This document shows positions 37,135 to 44,290 of a DNA stretch of 44,819 nt, piece by piece. Source of the stretch: an uncultured Collinsella sp. (GTDB taxonomy: Bacteria > Actinomycetota > Coriobacteriia > Coriobacteriales > Coriobacteriaceae). Numbering within the stretch: position 1 is the first letter of the stretch; each line of letters starts with the position of its first letter. The stretch lies in assembly GCA_937926755.1 (NCBI GenBank), contig CALBBA010000012.1, positions 1-44,819 of the forward strand. The letters run 5' to 3'. The notes beneath the pieces were generated by a model. That model searched no databases. It had not been told where the DNA came from and saw only the letters and a program-made list of their open reading frames with translations. The translations under genes and the position numbers were made by a program.

Positions 37135-38070
37135 ATGCAGGAAACTGATTCTCAGTCTCAGGAGCAGGCTACCGCCACCGAGGCCGCGTCTGCTCCCGCT
37201 AAGTCCCGCACGCTGTGGGGTGACGCTTTCAAGCGTCTTCGTAAGAACAAGCTCGCCGTCATCGGCGTCTGCTGGATCGTCATCGTCGTTCTCATTGCGC
37301 TGACTGCCGATCTGTGGGCCCAGCCTTGGCTCGGTTCTCCGACTGCCTCCGACTCGACCACCATGGCAAAGACCGCGCTTATGGCTCCGTGTGCCGAGCA
37401 TCCGTTTGGCACCGACGCTCTTGGTCGCGACATTTTGGTCCGTGTTATCTACGGTGCCCGCGTCTCGCTTTCCGTCGGTATCATGGCGACTGCCATCTCG
37501 ACGGTCATCGGTCTAATCATGGGCGCCCTCGCTGGTTTCTACGGCGGCGTCTGGGATACGATCATCATGCGCTGTGCGGACATCTTCCTGGCGTTCCCGT
37601 ACGTGCTGTTCGTCGTCGCCATGATCGCCGTCATCGGCCGTGGCCTTCAGAACGTCTTTATCGCCATCGGTATTCTCGGGTGGCCTTCGATTGCGCGTGT
37701 CTTCCGCTCTGCAATTTTGACGGTCAAGGAAAACGACTATGTTGACGCTGCGCGCGCGATGGGCGCATCGGACGCCCGTATCGTCATGCGTCACATCTTC
37801 CCGAACTCCGTTGCCTCCATCGTGGTCTACGCGACCATGAACATCGGTGGTGCCATTCTGACCGAGTCCGCTCTGTCCTACCTTGGAATGGGCGTTATTC
37901 CGCCTACGCCTTCTTGGGGCTCGATGATTCAGGACGGTCAGCAATATCTGATGACCGCCCCCTGGATGATGATCATGCCCGGTCTGGCAATTCTTACGAC
38001 GGTGCTCGCCTTCACCCTGCTGGGTGACGGTCTGCGCGACGCCCTCGACGTCAAGATGAAGGACGCATAA
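37135..38070 (+). CDS. oppC: Peptide ABC transporter permease (OppC/DppC)
   Basis: HPFGTDALGRD, YGARVSL, YVDAARAMGA, PSWGSMI, GDGLRDALD. Confidence 0.9.
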   Translation: MQETDSQSQEQATATEAASAPAKSRTLWGDAFKRLRKNKLAVIGVCWIVIVVLIALTADLWAQPWLGSPTASDSTTMAKTALMAPCAEHPFGTDALGRDILVRVIYGARVSLSVGIMATAISTVIGLIMGALAGFYGGVWDTIIMRCADIFLAFPYVLFVVAMIAVIGRGLQNVFIAIGILGWPSIARVFRSAILTVKENDYVDAARAMGASDARIVMRHIFPNSVASIVVYATMNIGGAILTESALSYLGMGVIPPTPSWGSMIQDGQQYLMTAPWMMIMPGLAILTTVLAFTLLGDGLRDALDVKMKDA

Positions 38071-38072
38071 GG

Positions 38073-39164
38073 ATGAAGAAGAACAAGAACTATGTGGACC
38101 TGAAGGACCAGCCGGTTCCCGAGGGCCAGCATCTGCTCGAGGTCGATGACCTTAAGATGTATTTCCACACCGAGGATGGCGTCGTTCGCGCTGTCGACGG
38201 TGTTTCCTACACGCTCGATCGCGGCGAGACCCTGGGCGTCGTCGGTGAGTCCGGCTCCGGTAAGTCCGTGACCGCTATGACCATCATGGGCCTTATCTCG
38301 ATGCCTCCGGGAAAGATCGAGGGCGGTGACGTTCGCTATCGCGGTCGCTCCATCCTCGAGATGACCGAGGAAGAGATGCAGCACATTCGCGGCAACGATA
38401 TCGCGATGATCTTCCAAGATCCCATGACATCCTTGAACCCGGTCTATAAGATCGGCAAGCAGGTGGGCGAGGGCCTTCGTCTGCACCGTGGCTACTCCAA
38501 GCAGGAGGCACTCAAGCGCGCCACCGAGCTTTTGGACCTTGTTGGCATTCCCGAGCCCGAGAAGCGCGTGAATGAGTATCCGCACCAGTTCTCTGGTGGC
38601 ATGCGTCAGCGCGTCATGATTGCCATGGCCCTTGCCTGCGACCCCGATATTCTGATTGCCGACGAACCCACGACTGCCCTGGACGTTACCATTCAGGCTC
38701 AGATTATTGAGCTTATGCAGGAAATGCAGAAGAAGAACGGCAACGCCATCATCATGATTACCCATGACCTGGGCGTTGTCGCCGATATGGCCGACAAAAT
38801 CATGGTTATGTACGCCGGCCGTCCCGTCGAGTTCGGTACTGCTGAGGAAATCTTCTACGAGAGCCGCCATCCCTACACCTGGGGCCTTATCCGCTCCATC
38901 CCGGAGCAGGCTATCGATGAGAAGAAGCCGCTGACGCCGATTCACGGCAACCCGCCTTCGCTCATGAACCTGCCCGAGGGTTGTGTGTTCTCGCCTCGTT
39001 GTCCCTATGCGACCGATAAGTGCCGCAAGCAGCGCCCCGAGCGTGTTGTCATCGAGTCCGGTCACTATTCTGCGTGCCACTACGCCGGCGACCCCGAGTT
39101 CCTCAAGAACGCTCCTGAGACGTCCCGTACGCGCAAGGATTTCAAGAAGGGAGGCGAGGCGTAA
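38073..39164 (+). CDS. oppD: Peptide ABC transporter ATPase (OppD/DppD)
   Basis: GESGSGKS, FQDPMTSLNP, YPHQFSGGMRQR, HPYT and the C-terminal GCxFxPRC Cys motif. Confidence 0.92.
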   Translation: MKKNKNYVDLKDQPVPEGQHLLEVDDLKMYFHTEDGVVRAVDGVSYTLDRGETLGVVGESGSGKSVTAMTIMGLISMPPGKIEGGDVRYRGRSILEMTEEEMQHIRGNDIAMIFQDPMTSLNPVYKIGKQVGEGLRLHRGYSKQEALKRATELLDLVGIPEPEKRVNEYPHQFSGGMRQRVMIAMALACDPDILIADEPTTALDVTIQAQIIELMQEMQKKNGNAIIMITHDLGVVADMADKIMVMYAGRPVEFGTAEEIFYESRHPYTWGLIRSIPEQAIDEKKPLTPIHGNPPSLMNLPEGCVFSPRCPYATDKCRKQRPERVVIESGHYSACHYAGDPEFLKNAPETSRTRKDFKKGGEA

Positions 39165-40193
39165 ATGGCAGACAAAAACACGCGCACTCCGCTGCTGAAG
39201 GTCGAGCACCTCTCTAAGGAGTTCCCTGCAGAGTCCGGCATGTTCGCCAAGCGTTTTTCCAAGCGCGTCGTCTCTGCTGTAAATGACATCTCTTTTGAGA
39301 TTTATCCTGGCGAGACCTTTGGTCTGGTTGGCGAGTCTGGTTGCGGTAAATCCACGACGGGCCGCACTATTATGCGCTTGACCAAGCCGACCGCTGGTAA
39401 GGTGTTTTTCCAGGGCAAAGATGTTGCCGAGATGAGCAAGCATGAGATCAAGGACATGCGTCGTGAGATGCAGTTTATCTTCCAGGATCCTTATGCTTCG
39501 CTCAACCCTCGTATGACGATTGGTGAGATCGTCTCCGAGCCCATGACCATTCACGGCGTGGGAACCAAGGAGGAGCGCATTGAGCGTGTCCGCGAGCTTC
39601 TCGACGTTGTCGGACTGAACCCCGAGCACATCAACCGCTATCCTCATGAGTTCTCCGGCGGTCAGCGTCAGCGTGTCGGCATTGCCCGCGCATTTGCGCT
39701 GAAGCCCAAGCTGATTATCTGCGACGAGCCGGTTTCCGCTCTGGATGTATCCATTCAGGCCCAGGTTTTGAACCTGCTCAAGGAGCTGCAGGACAAGTTT
39801 GGCACGGCGTATCTGTTTATCGCCCACGACCTGTCCGTCGTGCAGCACATCTCCGATCGCGTTGCCGTTATGTATCTGGGTAAGATGGTCGAGGTCTCGG
39901 ACTGGAAGACGCTCTACAGCGAGCCTCACCATCCGTACACGCAGTCGCTGCTGTCTGCCGTGCCGGTTCCCGATCCCGATATCCAGAAGACCCGCAAGCG
40001 TATCATTCTCGCTGGCGATCCGCCCTCGCCGCTTGATCCGCCGACCGGCTGCCGTTTTCACACGCGCTGCCCGATCGCGCAGGGTATCTGCTCCGAGAAG
40101 CTTCCCGAGTTTAAGGAAGTTGCCCCGGGCCACTGCTGCGCGTGCCACTTCGCGGAGCCGTTCCCGATCAAGGAATCGCACATCGACCTGTAG
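39165..40193 (+). CDS. oppF: Peptide ABC transporter ATPase (OppF/DppF)
   Basis: GESGCGKST, FQDPYASLNPR, YPHEFSGGQRQR, DEPVSALD, GCRFHTRCP. Confidence 0.92.
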   Translation: MADKNTRTPLLKVEHLSKEFPAESGMFAKRFSKRVVSAVNDISFEIYPGETFGLVGESGCGKSTTGRTIMRLTKPTAGKVFFQGKDVAEMSKHEIKDMRREMQFIFQDPYASLNPRMTIGEIVSEPMTIHGVGTKEERIERVRELLDVVGLNPEHINRYPHEFSGGQRQRVGIARAFALKPKLIICDEPVSALDVSIQAQVLNLLKELQDKFGTAYLFIAHDLSVVQHISDRVAVMYLGKMVEVSDWKTLYSEPHHPYTQSLLSAVPVPDPDIQKTRKRIILAGDPPSPLDPPTGCRFHTRCPIAQGICSEKLPEFKEVAPGHCCACHFAEPFPIKESHIDL

Positions 40194-40209
40194 TCGGTTG
40201 TTCTCGTCC

Positions 40210-40334
40210 GGGCCCGCCCTGGTGTTACTTTTCAGAACGTCCTCGGACATGTCGGAAGCCCCGCCGCGCGCTACGCGCTGCGGGGCTTCCTCCGTCCTGC
40301 GGGATGTTCTGAAAAGTAACACCAGGGCGGGCCC
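40210..40334 (-). repeat. 125-bp fold-back element, copy 1
   Basis: Perfect 29-bp arms (40210-40238 / 40306-40334), inner 11-bp arms (40254-40264 / 40280-40290), apical GCGC-GTA-GCGC on the minus strand. Confidence 0.9.
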
Positions 40335-40402
40335 TGCGGTAACTCGGCAGGGGGGGGGAGTGCGATTCCTGATCGCTCACTTAATCTAATAAGAAATTGA
40401 GC

Positions 40403-40457
40403 GAGGCCGGAGCTTTTGCTCCGGCCTCCTTATATAAGGGCTCGGCAAAGCCGAGCC
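40403..40457. other. Cluster of short perfect palindromes between the two fold-back elements (possible terminator)
   Basis: GAGGCCGGAGC-TTTT-GCTCCGGCCTC, CCTTATATAAGG and GGCTCGGC-AAA-GCCGAGCC. Confidence 0.7.
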
Positions 40458-40518
40458 ACCAAATTTGCATCAGCCCCCAGAACATGTTTGAGAACTGTGC
40501 CTGAATTACGTATTTGCA

Positions 40519-40643
40519 GGCCCCGAATCGGTGTTGCCTCCCGGCGCATTCCGCAGGGGGAGCGATATTTTGCAGCACGAAGTGCGTAGCAAAATATCGC
40601 TCATGCCCGAGGACGCGCCGGGAGGCAACACCGATTCGGGGCC
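40519..40643 (+). repeat. 125-bp fold-back element, copy 2
   Basis: Perfect 29-bp arms (40519-40547 / 40615-40643), inner 14-bp arms (40560-40573 / 40589-40602), apical GCAC-GAA-GTGC. Confidence 0.9.
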
Positions 40644-40680
40644 GGACATATAGATCTACCAGCGCATTTGCAGATTCGTA

Positions 40681-40730
40681 AACTTTTTTGAAAAAAGTGC
40701 TTGCACAGTTCTCGAATCATAGGTTATTAT
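40681..40730 (+). promoter_or_regulatory. Primary-sigma promoter of tRNA-Leu with an A/T-rich upstream element
   Basis: AACTTTTTTGAAAAAAGT, then TTGCAC (40701-40706), 18 bp, TATTAT (40725-40730). Confidence 0.75.
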
Positions 40731-40786
40731 CTTCCTCGTTGAAAGCGCGGGTTCAACAGAACGAACCGCGATCAACAACATAGCAT

Positions 40787-40876
40787 GTCGGAGTGGCGGA
40801 ATTGGCAGACGCGCTAGCTTGAGGTGCTAGTGACCGCTTTTTGGTCATGCGGGTTCAAGTCCCGCCTCCGACACCA
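40787..40876 (+). tRNA. tRNA-Leu(GAG)
   Basis: Acceptor GTCGGAG/CTCCGAC plus ACCA, anticodon arm CTAGC-TTGAGGT-GCTAG, long variable arm TGACC/GGTCA, T-arm GGTTCAAGTC. Confidence 0.97.
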
Positions 40877-40887
40877 TCGCATTTGAG

Positions 40888-40909
40888 AAGCCTCTTCGGA
40901 GGCTTTTTT
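40888..40909 (+). terminator. Intrinsic terminator after tRNA-Leu
   Basis: AAGCCTC-TTCG-GAGGCTT followed by TTTT (cUUCGg loop). Confidence 0.85.
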
Positions 40910-40935
40910 GTTACCGATAGACGGTGGGGTCCACG

Positions 40936-43281
40936 ATGGAAACGCTTGAACGCAACGAGTGGGCAGACGTTGCCCAACTAGTCGAGATCACGAGCGATGC
41001 TGTCATCATCTGCGAGCTCGACGGAACCATTCTGCATGTGAATAATCGCTTACTTGGTTTGATGTGCGAGGAACGCGCCGACGTCATCGGTGGAGATGTT
41101 AAAGACGTCCTGTACTCGTCCTCTTTTGAACGTGCGACGGAACATCGTCTGCCATTTGAAACTGATGGCTCCGAGAACGAACTGATGCTCAAACTGAGTG
41201 ACGGCTCTTTTATTCCCGTCTTGGTTCGTGCGGGCTCCGTAACGCCTCCACGCATCTTTGGGCGCCGCGCGCCACGTGTCCTGGTGGCGCTTCACAGTAT
41301 TGAGGAACAGTATTCTCACGACCGGCAACTCAAGCGTGCGTTATCGGAGCTTAGAGTGGCGAACAAGCGTCTCTCTGGCACGCTCTCGGTCATTATGAGC
41401 ACTGTGGGCTCCGATGAGTTACCCAGCCTGCTTGATACCGTTTTGAACCAGCTTGTAGGAACGCTCGATGCTTCGGGTGCCGCTATCTATTTTTCTGAGA
41501 GCGGCGGCTTTAAGCTTCGCGGTGTTTCCAAGGAGCTGCTCGACAGCTACCTGCCCGAGTTTTTGCCGTATGGCGCTGGCATTCCGACGTATGTTCTTCG
41601 CGAGTCGCGTGCCTGTCGCTTGTCGATTCAACAGGACCTCGAGGGCGATAGGGCCGCCTCCGGTATGTTCATGGACCTGGACAATCGTTCTAAGCACCTG
41701 TTGCGCGTGCAGGATATGCCTCCGTACCGCAGCGAGATCTGTCTTCCCGTTTTTTACGGTACGCAGATCCTTGGCGTGCTGGAAGTTGGTTGGAAACGCC
41801 CCCAGGCACCGCTCGCCTATGACGTTAATGTGCTCGAGGTTATTTGCGATTACCTGTCTATCCAGCTGGTCGGCATGGCATCGAGCCTTCGCTCTCGTCG
41901 CACGGCCGAGCTTGGCCGCTCGCTCAATGTCTTGCGTGATGAGTTGTTTACCTTTCTAGACGATCCCGCCGCGGCTACCCAGGCGGTATCGTCCGAGATC
42001 TGCAATATGCTCAACTGCCATTTTTGTCCTGTTGAGTATGACGCCAGTCTGGATTCCTACGTCATAGATTTTGAAGGCGGCAGCCGCGTTGCTTTGCCGG
42101 ACGATCCCGAGAAGCTTTTCTTTTCCATGATGGCGCCAGCGGCACGTCTGGGGGCTGGTCCTGATGGCTTTGAGGCATCTGTTTTGGGCGGCACGAGTGC
42201 CGAGGACCTTAAACACGTCCGTATAACGCGCGTTGACGAATCGATGCCTATGGGAGGCTGGCTTAGGGCGCATGGCCTGCCTTGTCAAGGTCTCTACGTC
42301 GACACCGGCATCGAGGCGGGGCGCCCGCGCTCTGAGGGTGATGGCAAGCACAGTAACGACGCGATTGTTCCTGTTTCTGTTGCGAAGAGGCCGACGACGC
42401 GCGCGCTGCTGCTTCGTGATGGTAGCCAAGAGCCGATTGATGACCTTGAATACGACTACTTGGTGCACTTGGCGCATGACTTTGAACTGATCTACGAAGG
42501 CGAATCTCAAAAGCGCGAGGAGCGCCATATCGCTCAGACCCTCCAGATCGGCATGAGAAATTCCCTGGGGGATGTTCCGGGTATCGCAACCGATTCGGTG
42601 TACCTGTCGGCCACGAACTCGGCGTTGGTCGGCGGCGATTTCTATACGCTCATCCGTCTTCCCGACGACTGCGCCGTCATGATTCTGGGTGATGTGTCTG
42701 GCAAGGGCATTGAGGCCGCATCGATGTCCGCGCTCGTCAAGACGGCCCTGACGGCCTATGCCTGGGAGGGCGCTGGACCGGCCCGCATGGCACGCTCCCT
42801 TAACAGCATGCTCATGGGCTTTTCGAGGGTCGAGACGTTTGTGACGGCGTTTATCGCCAAGATCGATCTTAAAGCGGGTCGCGCTACCTATTGCTCTGCG
42901 GGACATCCTCCCACTATGGTCATTAGGCCGTCGTCGACGCCGCTTGGTGGCGGCGAGACCTGCGGGGGAGAAGTGGAGCTCCTTGGGTGCCAATCGGGCG
43001 TGATCGGTGCCTTTGAGAGCATGGTGTACGAGACAGGCGTGTTTACGTTCGCCCCCGGCGACATGCTCTTCATGTATACGGATGGAACGATTGAGGCCCG
43101 CGACCGCACCGGAGCGTTCTTTGGCGAGCAGCGCTTGCGTGATCTTCTGCTTTCTGTTTCGGGGGAGGGCGTGTCGGGCATTTGCGGCAAGGTCTTGGGC
43201 GAGCTTGACCGATTTACCGAATCGGCGCTGGACGATGACATCGCGCTGGTCTCCCTTGAGTTTTTACGAGGTCGATTGTAG
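40936..43281 (+). CDS. PAS-GAF-SpoIIE/PP2C (RsbU-like) serine phosphatase
   Basis: PAS-like DAVIICELDGTILHVN; coiled coil; GAF-like SEICLPVFYGTQILGVLEV; PP2C motifs VGGDFY, LGDVSGKG, SAGHPP, YTDG..EAR, DDDIA. ATG at 40936 (alternative GTG at 40924). Confidence 0.9.
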   Translation: METLERNEWADVAQLVEITSDAVIICELDGTILHVNNRLLGLMCEERADVIGGDVKDVLYSSSFERATEHRLPFETDGSENELMLKLSDGSFIPVLVRAGSVTPPRIFGRRAPRVLVALHSIEEQYSHDRQLKRALSELRVANKRLSGTLSVIMSTVGSDELPSLLDTVLNQLVGTLDASGAAIYFSESGGFKLRGVSKELLDSYLPEFLPYGAGIPTYVLRESRACRLSIQQDLEGDRAASGMFMDLDNRSKHLLRVQDMPPYRSEICLPVFYGTQILGVLEVGWKRPQAPLAYDVNVLEVICDYLSIQLVGMASSLRSRRTAELGRSLNVLRDELFTFLDDPAAATQAVSSEICNMLNCHFCPVEYDASLDSYVIDFEGGSRVALPDDPEKLFFSMMAPAARLGAGPDGFEASVLGGTSAEDLKHVRITRVDESMPMGGWLRAHGLPCQGLYVDTGIEAGRPRSEGDGKHSNDAIVPVSVAKRPTTRALLLRDGSQEPIDDLEYDYLVHLAHDFELIYEGESQKREERHIAQTLQIGMRNSLGDVPGIATDSVYLSATNSALVGGDFYTLIRLPDDCAVMILGDVSGKGIEAASMSALVKTALTAYAWEGAGPARMARSLNSMLMGFSRVETFVTAFIAKIDLKAGRATYCSAGHPPTMVIRPSSTPLGGGETCGGEVELLGCQSGVIGAFESMVYETGVFTFAPGDMLFMYTDGTIEARDRTGAFFGEQRLRDLLLSVSGEGVSGICGKVLGELDRFTESALDDDIALVSLEFLRGRL

Positions 43282-44214: not shown

Positions 44215-44290
44215 GCGGACATGGCTCAGTTGGTAGAGCACAACCTTGCCAAGGTTGGGGTCGCGGGTTCGAGCCCCGTTGTCCGCTCCA
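44215..44290 (+). tRNA. tRNA-Gly(GCC)
   Basis: 76 nt, acceptor GCGGACA/TGTCCGC plus TCCA, anticodon GCC at 44248-44250, T-loop GGTTCGAG. Confidence 0.98.

Follow-up and report, generated by a model that had tools for sequence, protein, structure and literature searches.

What are the two long hairpins that stand side by side between an oppF-like gene and a tRNA-Leu gene in an uncultured Collinsella species, and what could they do there? The stretch of DNA analysed here, referred to as the window, is 44,819 nucleotides long (assembly GCA_937926755.1, contig CALBBA010000012.1, positions 1 to 44,819). Its two hairpins are members of a larger, Collinsella-centred family. In the genome which holds the window (G000; 2.52 Mb in 341 contigs) we found 14 full elements on 11 contigs, together with a further copy truncated at a contig end and a single weak match, using nhmmer and a covariance model (CM) built from the 14 own copies of this genome. 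The elements have an invariant asymmetric core between freely varying, paired arms, and they mostly follow a gene end in one orientation, for which the best supported explanation is a function at the 3' end of that gene's transcript.

The two hairpins and their family

Sequence reading and a repeat finder place two near-perfect fold-backs of ~125 nt and identical architecture at window positions 40210-40334 and 40519-40643. Copy 1 was annotated by the repeat finder with arms at 40210-40242/40302-40334 (I3; 33 nt, 97% complementary) and inner arms at 40254-40270/40274-40290 (I4), and copy 2 with arms at 40519-40573/40589-40643 (I1). Aligning the minus strand of copy 1 with the plus strand of copy 2 requires no gap within the element. 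The outer arms of the two copies differ at 12 of 29 positions and are fully paired with their partner in each copy in the minimum free energy (MFE) folds, and the inner arms, which are unrelated in sequence, are paired in both. The MFE of the two copies is -106 to -114 kcal/mol (z = -14 to -17), and none of 200 shuffles was equally stable. The features of the two copies are listed below, with boxes and apices given on the family strand, which is the minus strand for copy 1 and the plus strand for copy 2.

40210..40334, minus strand: element copy 1, full 125-nt hairpin (CM match 40200-40342, minus strand, 140.2 bits)
40519..40643, plus strand: element copy 2, full 125-nt hairpin (CM match 40511-40653, plus strand, 136.9 bits)
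40239..40251, minus strand: 3' core box of copy 1, CATGTCCGAGGAC (alignment of own copies)
40296..40305, minus strand: 5' core box of copy 1, ATCCCGCAGG, with C where most copies have T
40268..40278, minus strand: apical mini-hairpin of copy 1, GCGC-GTA-GCGC
40548..40557, plus strand: 5' core box of copy 2, ATTCCGCAGG
40602..40614, plus strand: 3' core box of copy 2, CATGCCCGAGGAC
40575..40585, plus strand: apical mini-hairpin of copy 2, GCAC-GAA-GTGC, with a C-GNA-G triloop

The original prediction for this locus, made from the letters of the window, had described two fold-backs with the same gap-free architecture, 12 of 29 outer-arm differences which are all compensated, the conserved boxes ATyCCGCAGG and CATGyCCGAGGAC, an apical C-GNA-G and a position between oppF and tRNA-Leu. 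The architecture is confirmed by sequence, repeat finder and alignment and the compensation by the alignment count and the MFE folds, while the boxes and the apex are present as claimed and the neighbouring genes are those named. A search for further copies with a covariance model had been proposed as well; it is this search that found the 14 full copies in the genome, and most of the Collinsella species searched have the family.

The box CATGyCCGAGGAC alone occurs 14 times in G000. In a first draw of genomes, the model matched all 24 same-genus species genomes, most of them with ~20 matches over both strands, corresponding to ~10-13 elements, and it matched one of 16 genomes from other genera of the order, weakly. 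A near-complete relative (G021) carries 13 full elements and one inner-only remnant. In a family-wide draw at E <= 1e-5, matches were found in 65 of 71 Collinsella genomes, with none in the remaining six, and in 16 of 29 genomes from four other Coriobacteriaceae genera. The weaker matches are minimal versions, in which a long variable outer stem encloses CATTCCGCAG-[4-5-bp stem, 3-5-nt loop]-CGAGGACG; they occur in other Collinsella species and in a second genus. A loose pattern scan with one genome per species gave at least 122 stretches, and 80 loci were put through the model. Among the matches listed, all 37 loci that passed the model come from records of Collinsella, of Coriobacteriaceae or of an unnamed bacterium; those from Streptomyces, Kitasatospora and other high-GC genomes, from proteobacteria and from elsewhere failed it. 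Two scans of viral contigs gave at least 121 and at least 120 stretches, and among the 240 pattern matches listed from them not one has a real outer stem.

Besides the full elements there are half-element remnants, consisting of the loop, the CTGCGGAAT box and one arm. One is located ~65-105 nt downstream of the element after fba on contig C271 of G000, just past the full element, and a similar one ~67-120 nt downstream (in the sense direction) of the GHMP-kinase element on contig C135. This arrangement suggests that they are decayed tandem copies. A different feature is a 45-69-nt segment ~130-195 nt to the left of the element at 1322-1463 on contig C302, which matches several G021 loci in both orientations and is another small palindromic repeat family.

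In the window, copy 1 lies 17 nt past the stop codon of the oppF-like gene, and copy 2 lies 144 nt upstream of tRNA-Leu and has no adjoining gene end. The copies point apart across 184 bp, which contain two small hairpins, one of them I8. The neighbouring features are:

39165..40193, plus strand: OppF-like ABC ATPase open reading frame (ORF; ABC_tran, oligo_HPY), whose stop precedes copy 1
40403..40428, plus strand: small 11-bp GC-rich hairpin (I8), then a T/A-rich tail, in the spacer between the copies
40787..40876, plus strand: tRNA-Leu(GAG), the downstream neighbour

The two copies could not be confirmed as the ends of a gene-less element: single copies are scattered over about a dozen loci per genome, and the paired arrangement is one that several species retain at this locus. 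The proposed comparison with empty sites between oppF and tRNA-Leu did not yield a clean empty site, as the two same-genus genomes in which elements are few or missing (G014 and G015) carry an extra ORF of 600-700 aa between the two genes. G015, a species without the hairpin family, has its extra ORF of 600 aa together with a different palindromic repeat with arms GCCGAGCGTTCGTAAT, which occurs twice between oppF and tRNA-Leu (locus L174 on contig C10 of G015, 467-542 and 2473-2558). Directly after copy 1 there is a run of ten G at window positions 40349-40358, which is shorter in G021. Contigs of two sequencing runs, from a related organism, have 755 extra letters between the two hairpins at window positions 40465-40475. 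Downstream of tRNA-Leu follow a GAF-SpoIIE (PP2C-type phosphatase) ORF (40924-43281, plus strand) and tRNA-Gly(GCC) (44215-44290, plus strand).

An invariant core between covarying arms

On the family strand the central asymmetric core reads 5' CAT-TCC-GCA-G [hairpin] C-GA-GGA-CG 3'. From 5' to 3', the element consists of an outer stem of at least 28 bp, C-AT, TCC, GCA, a helix of 3-5 bp, the inner stem and the apical stem. The helix next to GCA is GGAC/GTCC and covaries to GGG/CCC, GATC/GATC and GACC/GGTC. The inner stem has ~11-14 bp and is missing from the minimal forms, and the apex is a 4-bp stem with a GNA loop, after which the return strand C-GA-GGA-C-G leads back into the outer stem. 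Within the core, TCC pairs with GGA, and the bases which are both unpaired and invariant are GCA opposite GA and AT opposite C. The 5' flank is often (T/C)(C/T)ACCGCA and the 3' flank often CGGAC. In all 14 own copies of G000 CGAGGACG is invariant, and the core persists where the upper hairpin shrinks to 4-5 bp. Since the unpaired core bases are kept across genera while the stems and the size of the upper hairpin change, the folded core is probably recognised by some factor.

Compensatory change is widespread in the stems. Double changes were found at 39 of 50 pairs in the 14 own copies, and at 45 of 50 pairs in an alignment of 66 distinct sequences (A3), in which 97.4% of cells are paired; A3 was fitted to the model, which favours the structure, and a MAFFT alignment (A2) agrees with it. 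In shuffled controls of A3, 67.0% of cells are paired (0 of 500 shuffles reach 97.4%), and sliding the partners by 1-3 columns leaves 35-49%. The predicted family defined by structure, with constant linkers and boxes and freely covarying stems, is thus what the alignments contain. Two other explanations of the core were tried and rejected. A K-turn does not fit, because the covarying positions give Watson-Crick G-C or A-T pairs beside the loop and not tandem G·A pairs in K-turn register. Each box is near-palindromic (GTCC-nn-GGAC), as a palindromic protein site in double-stranded DNA might be, but its variable half covaries with the other box and not with its own second half.

How the arms stay complementary is a separate matter. 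In the outer 28 bp of 85 distinct elements, 2320 of 2380 pairs are Watson-Crick pairs, and the exceptions are 16 G·T, 22 A·C and 22 other mismatches. Wobble pairs are thus no commoner than the mirror-image mismatches on either strand, and this is unlike the usual outcome of pair-by-pair selection on one RNA strand.

Comparing G000 with G021 allowed us to follow elements in place, as most G000 elements have an orthologous position in G021 with 400-nt flanks of 85-99% identity. Across these loci the outer arms show 0 to 11 differences between the two species, nearly all compensated. The arms are identical at oppF copy 1 and groEL, with 0-1 differences at pfk and the ATPase locus, 8-9 compensated differences at the MIP, PEP-carboxylase and GHMP loci, and 11 differences at oppF copy 2, of which all 11 are compensated. 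Inner modules are swapped as blocks: oppF copy 1 has equal outer arms and an unlike inner module in the two species, and in other species the same outer arm and flank bear different inner modules. At some orthologous loci the whole element has been replaced. After PEP carboxylase (C262:13988-14131 of G000), the core is inverted relative to three other genomes and the flanks are unchanged. Two elements of G000 (C281:9234-9378 and C303:2347-2488) have non-complementary outer arms, with 14 of 28 and 12 of 28 pairs, and in both the two flanks map to different G021 loci, which for C281 are ~1 Mb apart. This arrangement points either to recombination of one copy with another or to chimeric contigs, which the metagenome-style assembly would have joined at the common core.

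According to PMC8604942 and PMC5941160, inverted repeats can have their arms homogenised and their spacers inverted by template switching, and PMC3820800 reports that quasi-palindrome mutations are raised in highly transcribed DNA. The strand-symmetric perfection, the exchange of blocks and the inversion point to a complementarity of the arms that is held by correction at the DNA level. Template switching or gene conversion, both between the two inverted arms and from one copy to another, would be the main process that keeps the arms matched, and pair-by-pair selection on RNA would play the lesser part. Long palindromes with fast-diverging yet perfectly paired arms and no wobble intermediates make these elements a natural case for template-switch correction in bacteria. 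The shared core also has a practical side, as it breaks assemblies and can make chimeric contigs in Collinsella metagenome-assembled genomes.

Position after genes and possible roles

Of the 14 elements in G000, 11 are found at a distance of 1-26 nt from the end of a gene. Ten of these have the gene antisense to the family strand, and the eleventh is the inverted copy. The genes upstream of elements encode OppF, Fba (class II fructose-bisphosphate aldolase), Pfk (phosphofructokinase), PFOR (pyruvate:ferredoxin oxidoreductase), GroEL and PEP carboxylase, as well as Asd (aspartate-semialdehyde dehydrogenase), a MIP channel, a P-type ATPase, a GHMP kinase and an esterase; judging by the identity of these genes, they are probably highly expressed. 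One element is located between the convergent genes for acetate kinase and pyruvate formate-lyase. Contig C135 has three elements in a stretch of 12.5 kb, on the strands +, -, + beside genes on -, +, -, and this alternation indicates that the orientation tracks the gene and not a single replication direction. Among 105 distinct instances from many genomes, an antisense gene end was found at 2-46 nt in 73, a sense gene end in two and no gene end by the ORF criteria in 31, where the counts overlap by one because an instance between convergent genes has both ends. Of the 75 informative instances, 73 have an antisense gene end; the 105 instances are related and not independent, with about a dozen to twenty underlying loci. 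As copy 1 in the window is on the minus strand after oppF, the oppF transcript would carry the reverse complement of the family strand.

On the sense strand, then, a stable GC-rich hairpin follows the stop codon at a short distance, as is expected of an intrinsic terminator, and relatives without the element have ordinary terminators in these positions. Downstream of groEL, distant Collinsella species show a gradation. The hairpin of G093 and of G119 is plain and GC-rich, with a T-run or T-rich tail behind it; that of G121 is longer and lacks the core; G122 carries the minimal core; and long versions are present in G131 and G000. The hairpin base GGAATCC...GGATTCC is common to all these species except G093, and the tail TGCGTTTAC is common to G000, G121, G122 and G131. 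At the corresponding place after fba, all five element-free or element-poor species have a hairpin with a T-run or T-rich tail, and after pfk two of the five do. Another terminator-like hairpin within 170 nt past the element was found for one of the 14 elements in G000, namely I8 at the oppF locus.

The orientation rule, the distance to the stop codon and the replacement of ordinary terminators together speak most strongly for a function at the 3' end of the transcript that precedes the element. We put at even odds the more specific reading that the element is a terminator without a U-tract, or a hairpin which stabilises 3' ends, with a predicted recognition loop for a factor and with arms perfected by template switching at the DNA level. 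The element would be transcribed within the upstream mRNA, which it would stop or stabilise, and the conserved loop is predicted to be bound or cleaved by a protein or RNase. The genus Collinsella is abundant in the human gut, and hardly anything has been described of its post-transcriptional biology. If the elements set the 3' ends or half-lives of mRNAs, they would form a lineage-specific layer of expression control after glycolytic, chaperone and transporter genes, in which the motif to be recognised is already defined and open to testing.

Several points weigh against this terminator or stabiliser. There is no U-tract directly 3' of the elements on the sense strand, where the tails are CTGCGGTRAC or CTGCGTTTAC, and the element-free relatives do have U-tracts at these places. 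The unpaired bases of the mRNA strand are pyrimidine-rich (UC/UGC), with an apical UNC loop, and the purine-rich GCA/GA loop and the C-GNA-G triloop, which are more like structured recognition motifs, are on the other strand. The absent G·U excess in the arms is unusual for a stem selected solely as RNA. Window copy 2 has no gene end beside it, like 31 of the 105 instances, and the orientation rule could equally stem from a strand-specific insertion process. No candidate binding factor for the loop was identified. The RNA data are assembled contigs only, which show neither 3' ends nor strand. They cover window positions 38000-42000 and come from two RNA-seq runs, one run labelled as metatranscriptome and one probable DNA run. 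In one of them (X17) the opp contig, with a mean depth of 3166, ends at 40238 inside copy 1, and the contig of the spacer has a depth of 64.5; the probable DNA run is flat at ~20 over the same region. Because contigs give one depth each, break at repeats and are loose-ended here, neither observation was counted as evidence.

The original prediction had instead taken the hairpins for substrates, as folded single-stranded DNA (ssDNA) or as cruciforms, of an HUH nuclease or recombinase encoded elsewhere, which in its sharper form means a REP/REPIN-like element moved or processed by a RAYT-like HUH Y1 enzyme, with any effects on transcripts being secondary. The enzymes exist: the three Y1_Tnp matches in G000 are one IS200-like gene and two RAYT-like genes. 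P0001 (C75:8436-9224, minus strand; 263 aa) has the HUH motif HFH, a Tyr in YIHLNPV and a C-terminal helix-turn-helix-like tail, and scores 53 bits against the NCBIfam model REP_Tyr_transpos, below the cut-off of 80. P0002 (C188:4921-5940, plus strand; 341 aa) also has such a tail, but a Ser at the position of the expected catalytic Tyr, and it is interrupted by stops in several sister species. Both are single-copy and were found in 23 of the 24 same-genus genomes, the exception being G015 with its two weak element matches only. The pairing constraint is symmetric between the strands, C-GNA-G triloops are stable in DNA, and the replacement of whole elements at some orthologous loci fits a mobile unit. 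Many copies have G(C/T)AG immediately before the outer stem, on its 5' side, and GCAG in the corresponding place before the inner stem, which recalls the GTAG tag of REPs as described in the available part of PMC3733652; the G(C/T)AG of many copies belongs to a longer repeated CCGCAG, and other copies have CCGG or other bases. The link from genes to elements is what fails. No element lies beside a RAYT-like gene at 12 loci from 11 genomes, and there is no CM match on the contigs of the three Y1_Tnp genes in G000. About half of the element-rich species, with their ~10-13 elements, have no close orthologue of P0001 (>=90% identity) or one that is fragmentary or interrupted. In the four other Coriobacteriaceae genera a homologue was found in 11 of 16 genomes with elements and in 7 of 13 without, so that neither flank search nor co-distribution gives a dependable link. 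The copies are also few and mainly at orthologous positions, their constant asymmetric centre and variable arms are the inverse of a REPIN, and their orientation tracks transcription and not one replication direction. We consider this ssDNA reading unlikely.

A selfish or neutral palindromic repeat, such as an old miniature element which lodged in the apices of terminator hairpins and is kept palindromic by template switching, would account for several of the observations above: the groEL element inside an older hairpin whose base and tail are common to core-less species, the inner modules which move between loci, the half-element and inner-only remnants, and a copy number which varies by species down to none detected in some Collinsella. 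We nevertheless judge it improbable, because the unpaired core which stays invariant across genera amid changing surroundings indicates selection on a recognised structure; moreover, the elements keep their positions from one species to the next, the flanks showed neither a target-site duplication nor terminal repeats, and no true member was among the 240 viral-contig matches listed. A related idea, to which we assign a similarly low probability, is that the core and its capping hairpin are a self-contained module which spreads into the apices of terminator hairpins and is read as RNA or ssDNA by a dedicated putative factor. If true, this would be a terminator-hairpin-dwelling element of an undescribed kind, with arms self-renewing via template switching. 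The motifs which most resemble structured RNA recognition elements, the GCA/GA loop and the GNA triloop, are on the family strand. This raises the question of an independent small or antisense RNA from this strand, and for window copy 2 such an RNA would run in the direction of the downstream tRNA. In 73 of the 75 informative instances, though, it would enter the neighbouring gene at its 3' end as an antisense transcript; the family strand has no wobble excess, and no promoter was seen in the right place, although no promoter search was made. This makes such an RNA very unlikely. The inverted core after PEP carboxylase is the one observation in favour of an invertible DNA switch, in which the outer arms would act as inverted repeats that flip the asymmetric core and alter the expression of a neighbour. 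It is a single inversion among the orthologous sets examined and template switching accounts for such an occasional event, the hypervariable arms could not be recognised by a site-specific invertase, and no promoter is evident in the 66-73-bp core, though no promoter test was made; a switch is extremely improbable. The reading that remains at even odds is the hairpin at the 3' end of the upstream mRNA.

Comparison with known systems

The family is unnamed in the resources covered, and the original prediction did not recognise a named family either. Rfam 15 has no matching family at the gathering threshold, and gave only sub-threshold matches to hairpins like those of miRNA precursors. In full-text literature on Collinsella palindromic or intergenic hairpin repeats we found no description of the family. 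Collinsella is named 243 times in the table of a human-microbiome catalogue with 3161 candidate structured RNAs (PMC8040213); this motif is not among the few rows examined, and as the table sheet is without sequences the motif may be listed elsewhere in it. The REP survey PMC3733652, in its available part, makes no mention of Actinobacteria. The Collinsella-1 RNA motif (RF01700) resembles the family in being a structured non-coding motif of Collinsella and the human gut, as far as the accessible text of PMC2864571 describes it, but it sits at other G000 loci and does not match the elements. Its matches above threshold are at C341:2874-3070, C100:1295-1470 and C289:1985-2172 of G000, and they are unrelated to the hairpin family.

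The REP/BIME and REPIN-RAYT systems of Enterobacteria and Pseudomonas are like the Collinsella elements in being intergenic palindromes, mostly just downstream of genes, which can fold as ssDNA or mRNA, and in their compensatory hairpin changes, vertical inheritance and long life (available parts of PMC3116915 and PMC3733652). RAYT-like genes in the genome are a further likeness. REP hairpins have an unpaired GTAG (or CGTC) tag at one end, and in many copies of the Collinsella elements, though not in all, a motif of the G(T/C)AG type precedes the stem. Unlike here, a REPIN has conserved inverted REPs at both ends with a variable middle, where the Collinsella elements have a conserved asymmetric middle and variable arms, and it occurs in tens to hundreds of copies, compared to ~14 in G000 and 13 in G021. 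The RAYT-like genes in Collinsella are neither flanked by the elements nor do they track their distribution. A strict REPIN was thus rejected on its conserved centre instead of ends, the too few copies and the lack of a flanking or co-distributed RAYT. Ends of IS200/IS605 elements, or miniature elements derived from them, were likewise rejected on the missing CM matches on the contigs of the three Y1_Tnp genes.

Integron attC sites are also recognised by structure and folded from imperfect palindromes of similar length, directly after ORFs. However, attC sites conserve the base of the stem (R and L boxes) and form cassette arrays beside intI, whereas the Collinsella elements conserve the middle. 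They are also single, dispersed on 11 contigs after core genes and without conserved GTTRRRY/RYYYAAC ends, on which attC was rejected; intI was not searched.

In the RNase III processing hairpins of phage T7, which lie between genes, an asymmetric internal loop separates a lower from an upper stem, and cleavage in the loop leaves a protective 3' hairpin. By analogy they are a possible working model for the conserved loop. They are unrelated in sequence, the lower stem is much longer in the Collinsella elements, and RNase III cleavage is here purely an analogy.

ERIC/IRU elements and the Correia (NEMIS) elements of Neisseria are imperfect palindromes of ~100-150 bp, which are co-transcribed with adjacent genes and reportedly have orientation-dependent effects on mRNA processing and stability. 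They are palindromes of a similar kind to the Collinsella elements. They differ in being conserved over their full length, with terminal inverted repeats, target duplications (in Correia) and variable loci, in contrast to the Collinsella elements, where the core alone is conserved, the arms are most variable, the loci are largely fixed and no flank duplication was seen. A miniature inverted-repeat transposable element of the ERIC/Correia type was therefore rejected on the variable arms and on the absence of a target-site duplication in the flanks.

With intrinsic terminators the elements have in common a GC-rich hairpin a few to ~30 nt past the stop codon, on the sense strand, at places where relatives have canonical terminators. 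They differ from them in having no U-tract, a stem 3-5 times longer and an invariant asymmetric loop across unrelated loci. Overall, we rate this family, which is without an Rfam match, as akin to the REP/ERIC-like palindromes and associated with terminators.

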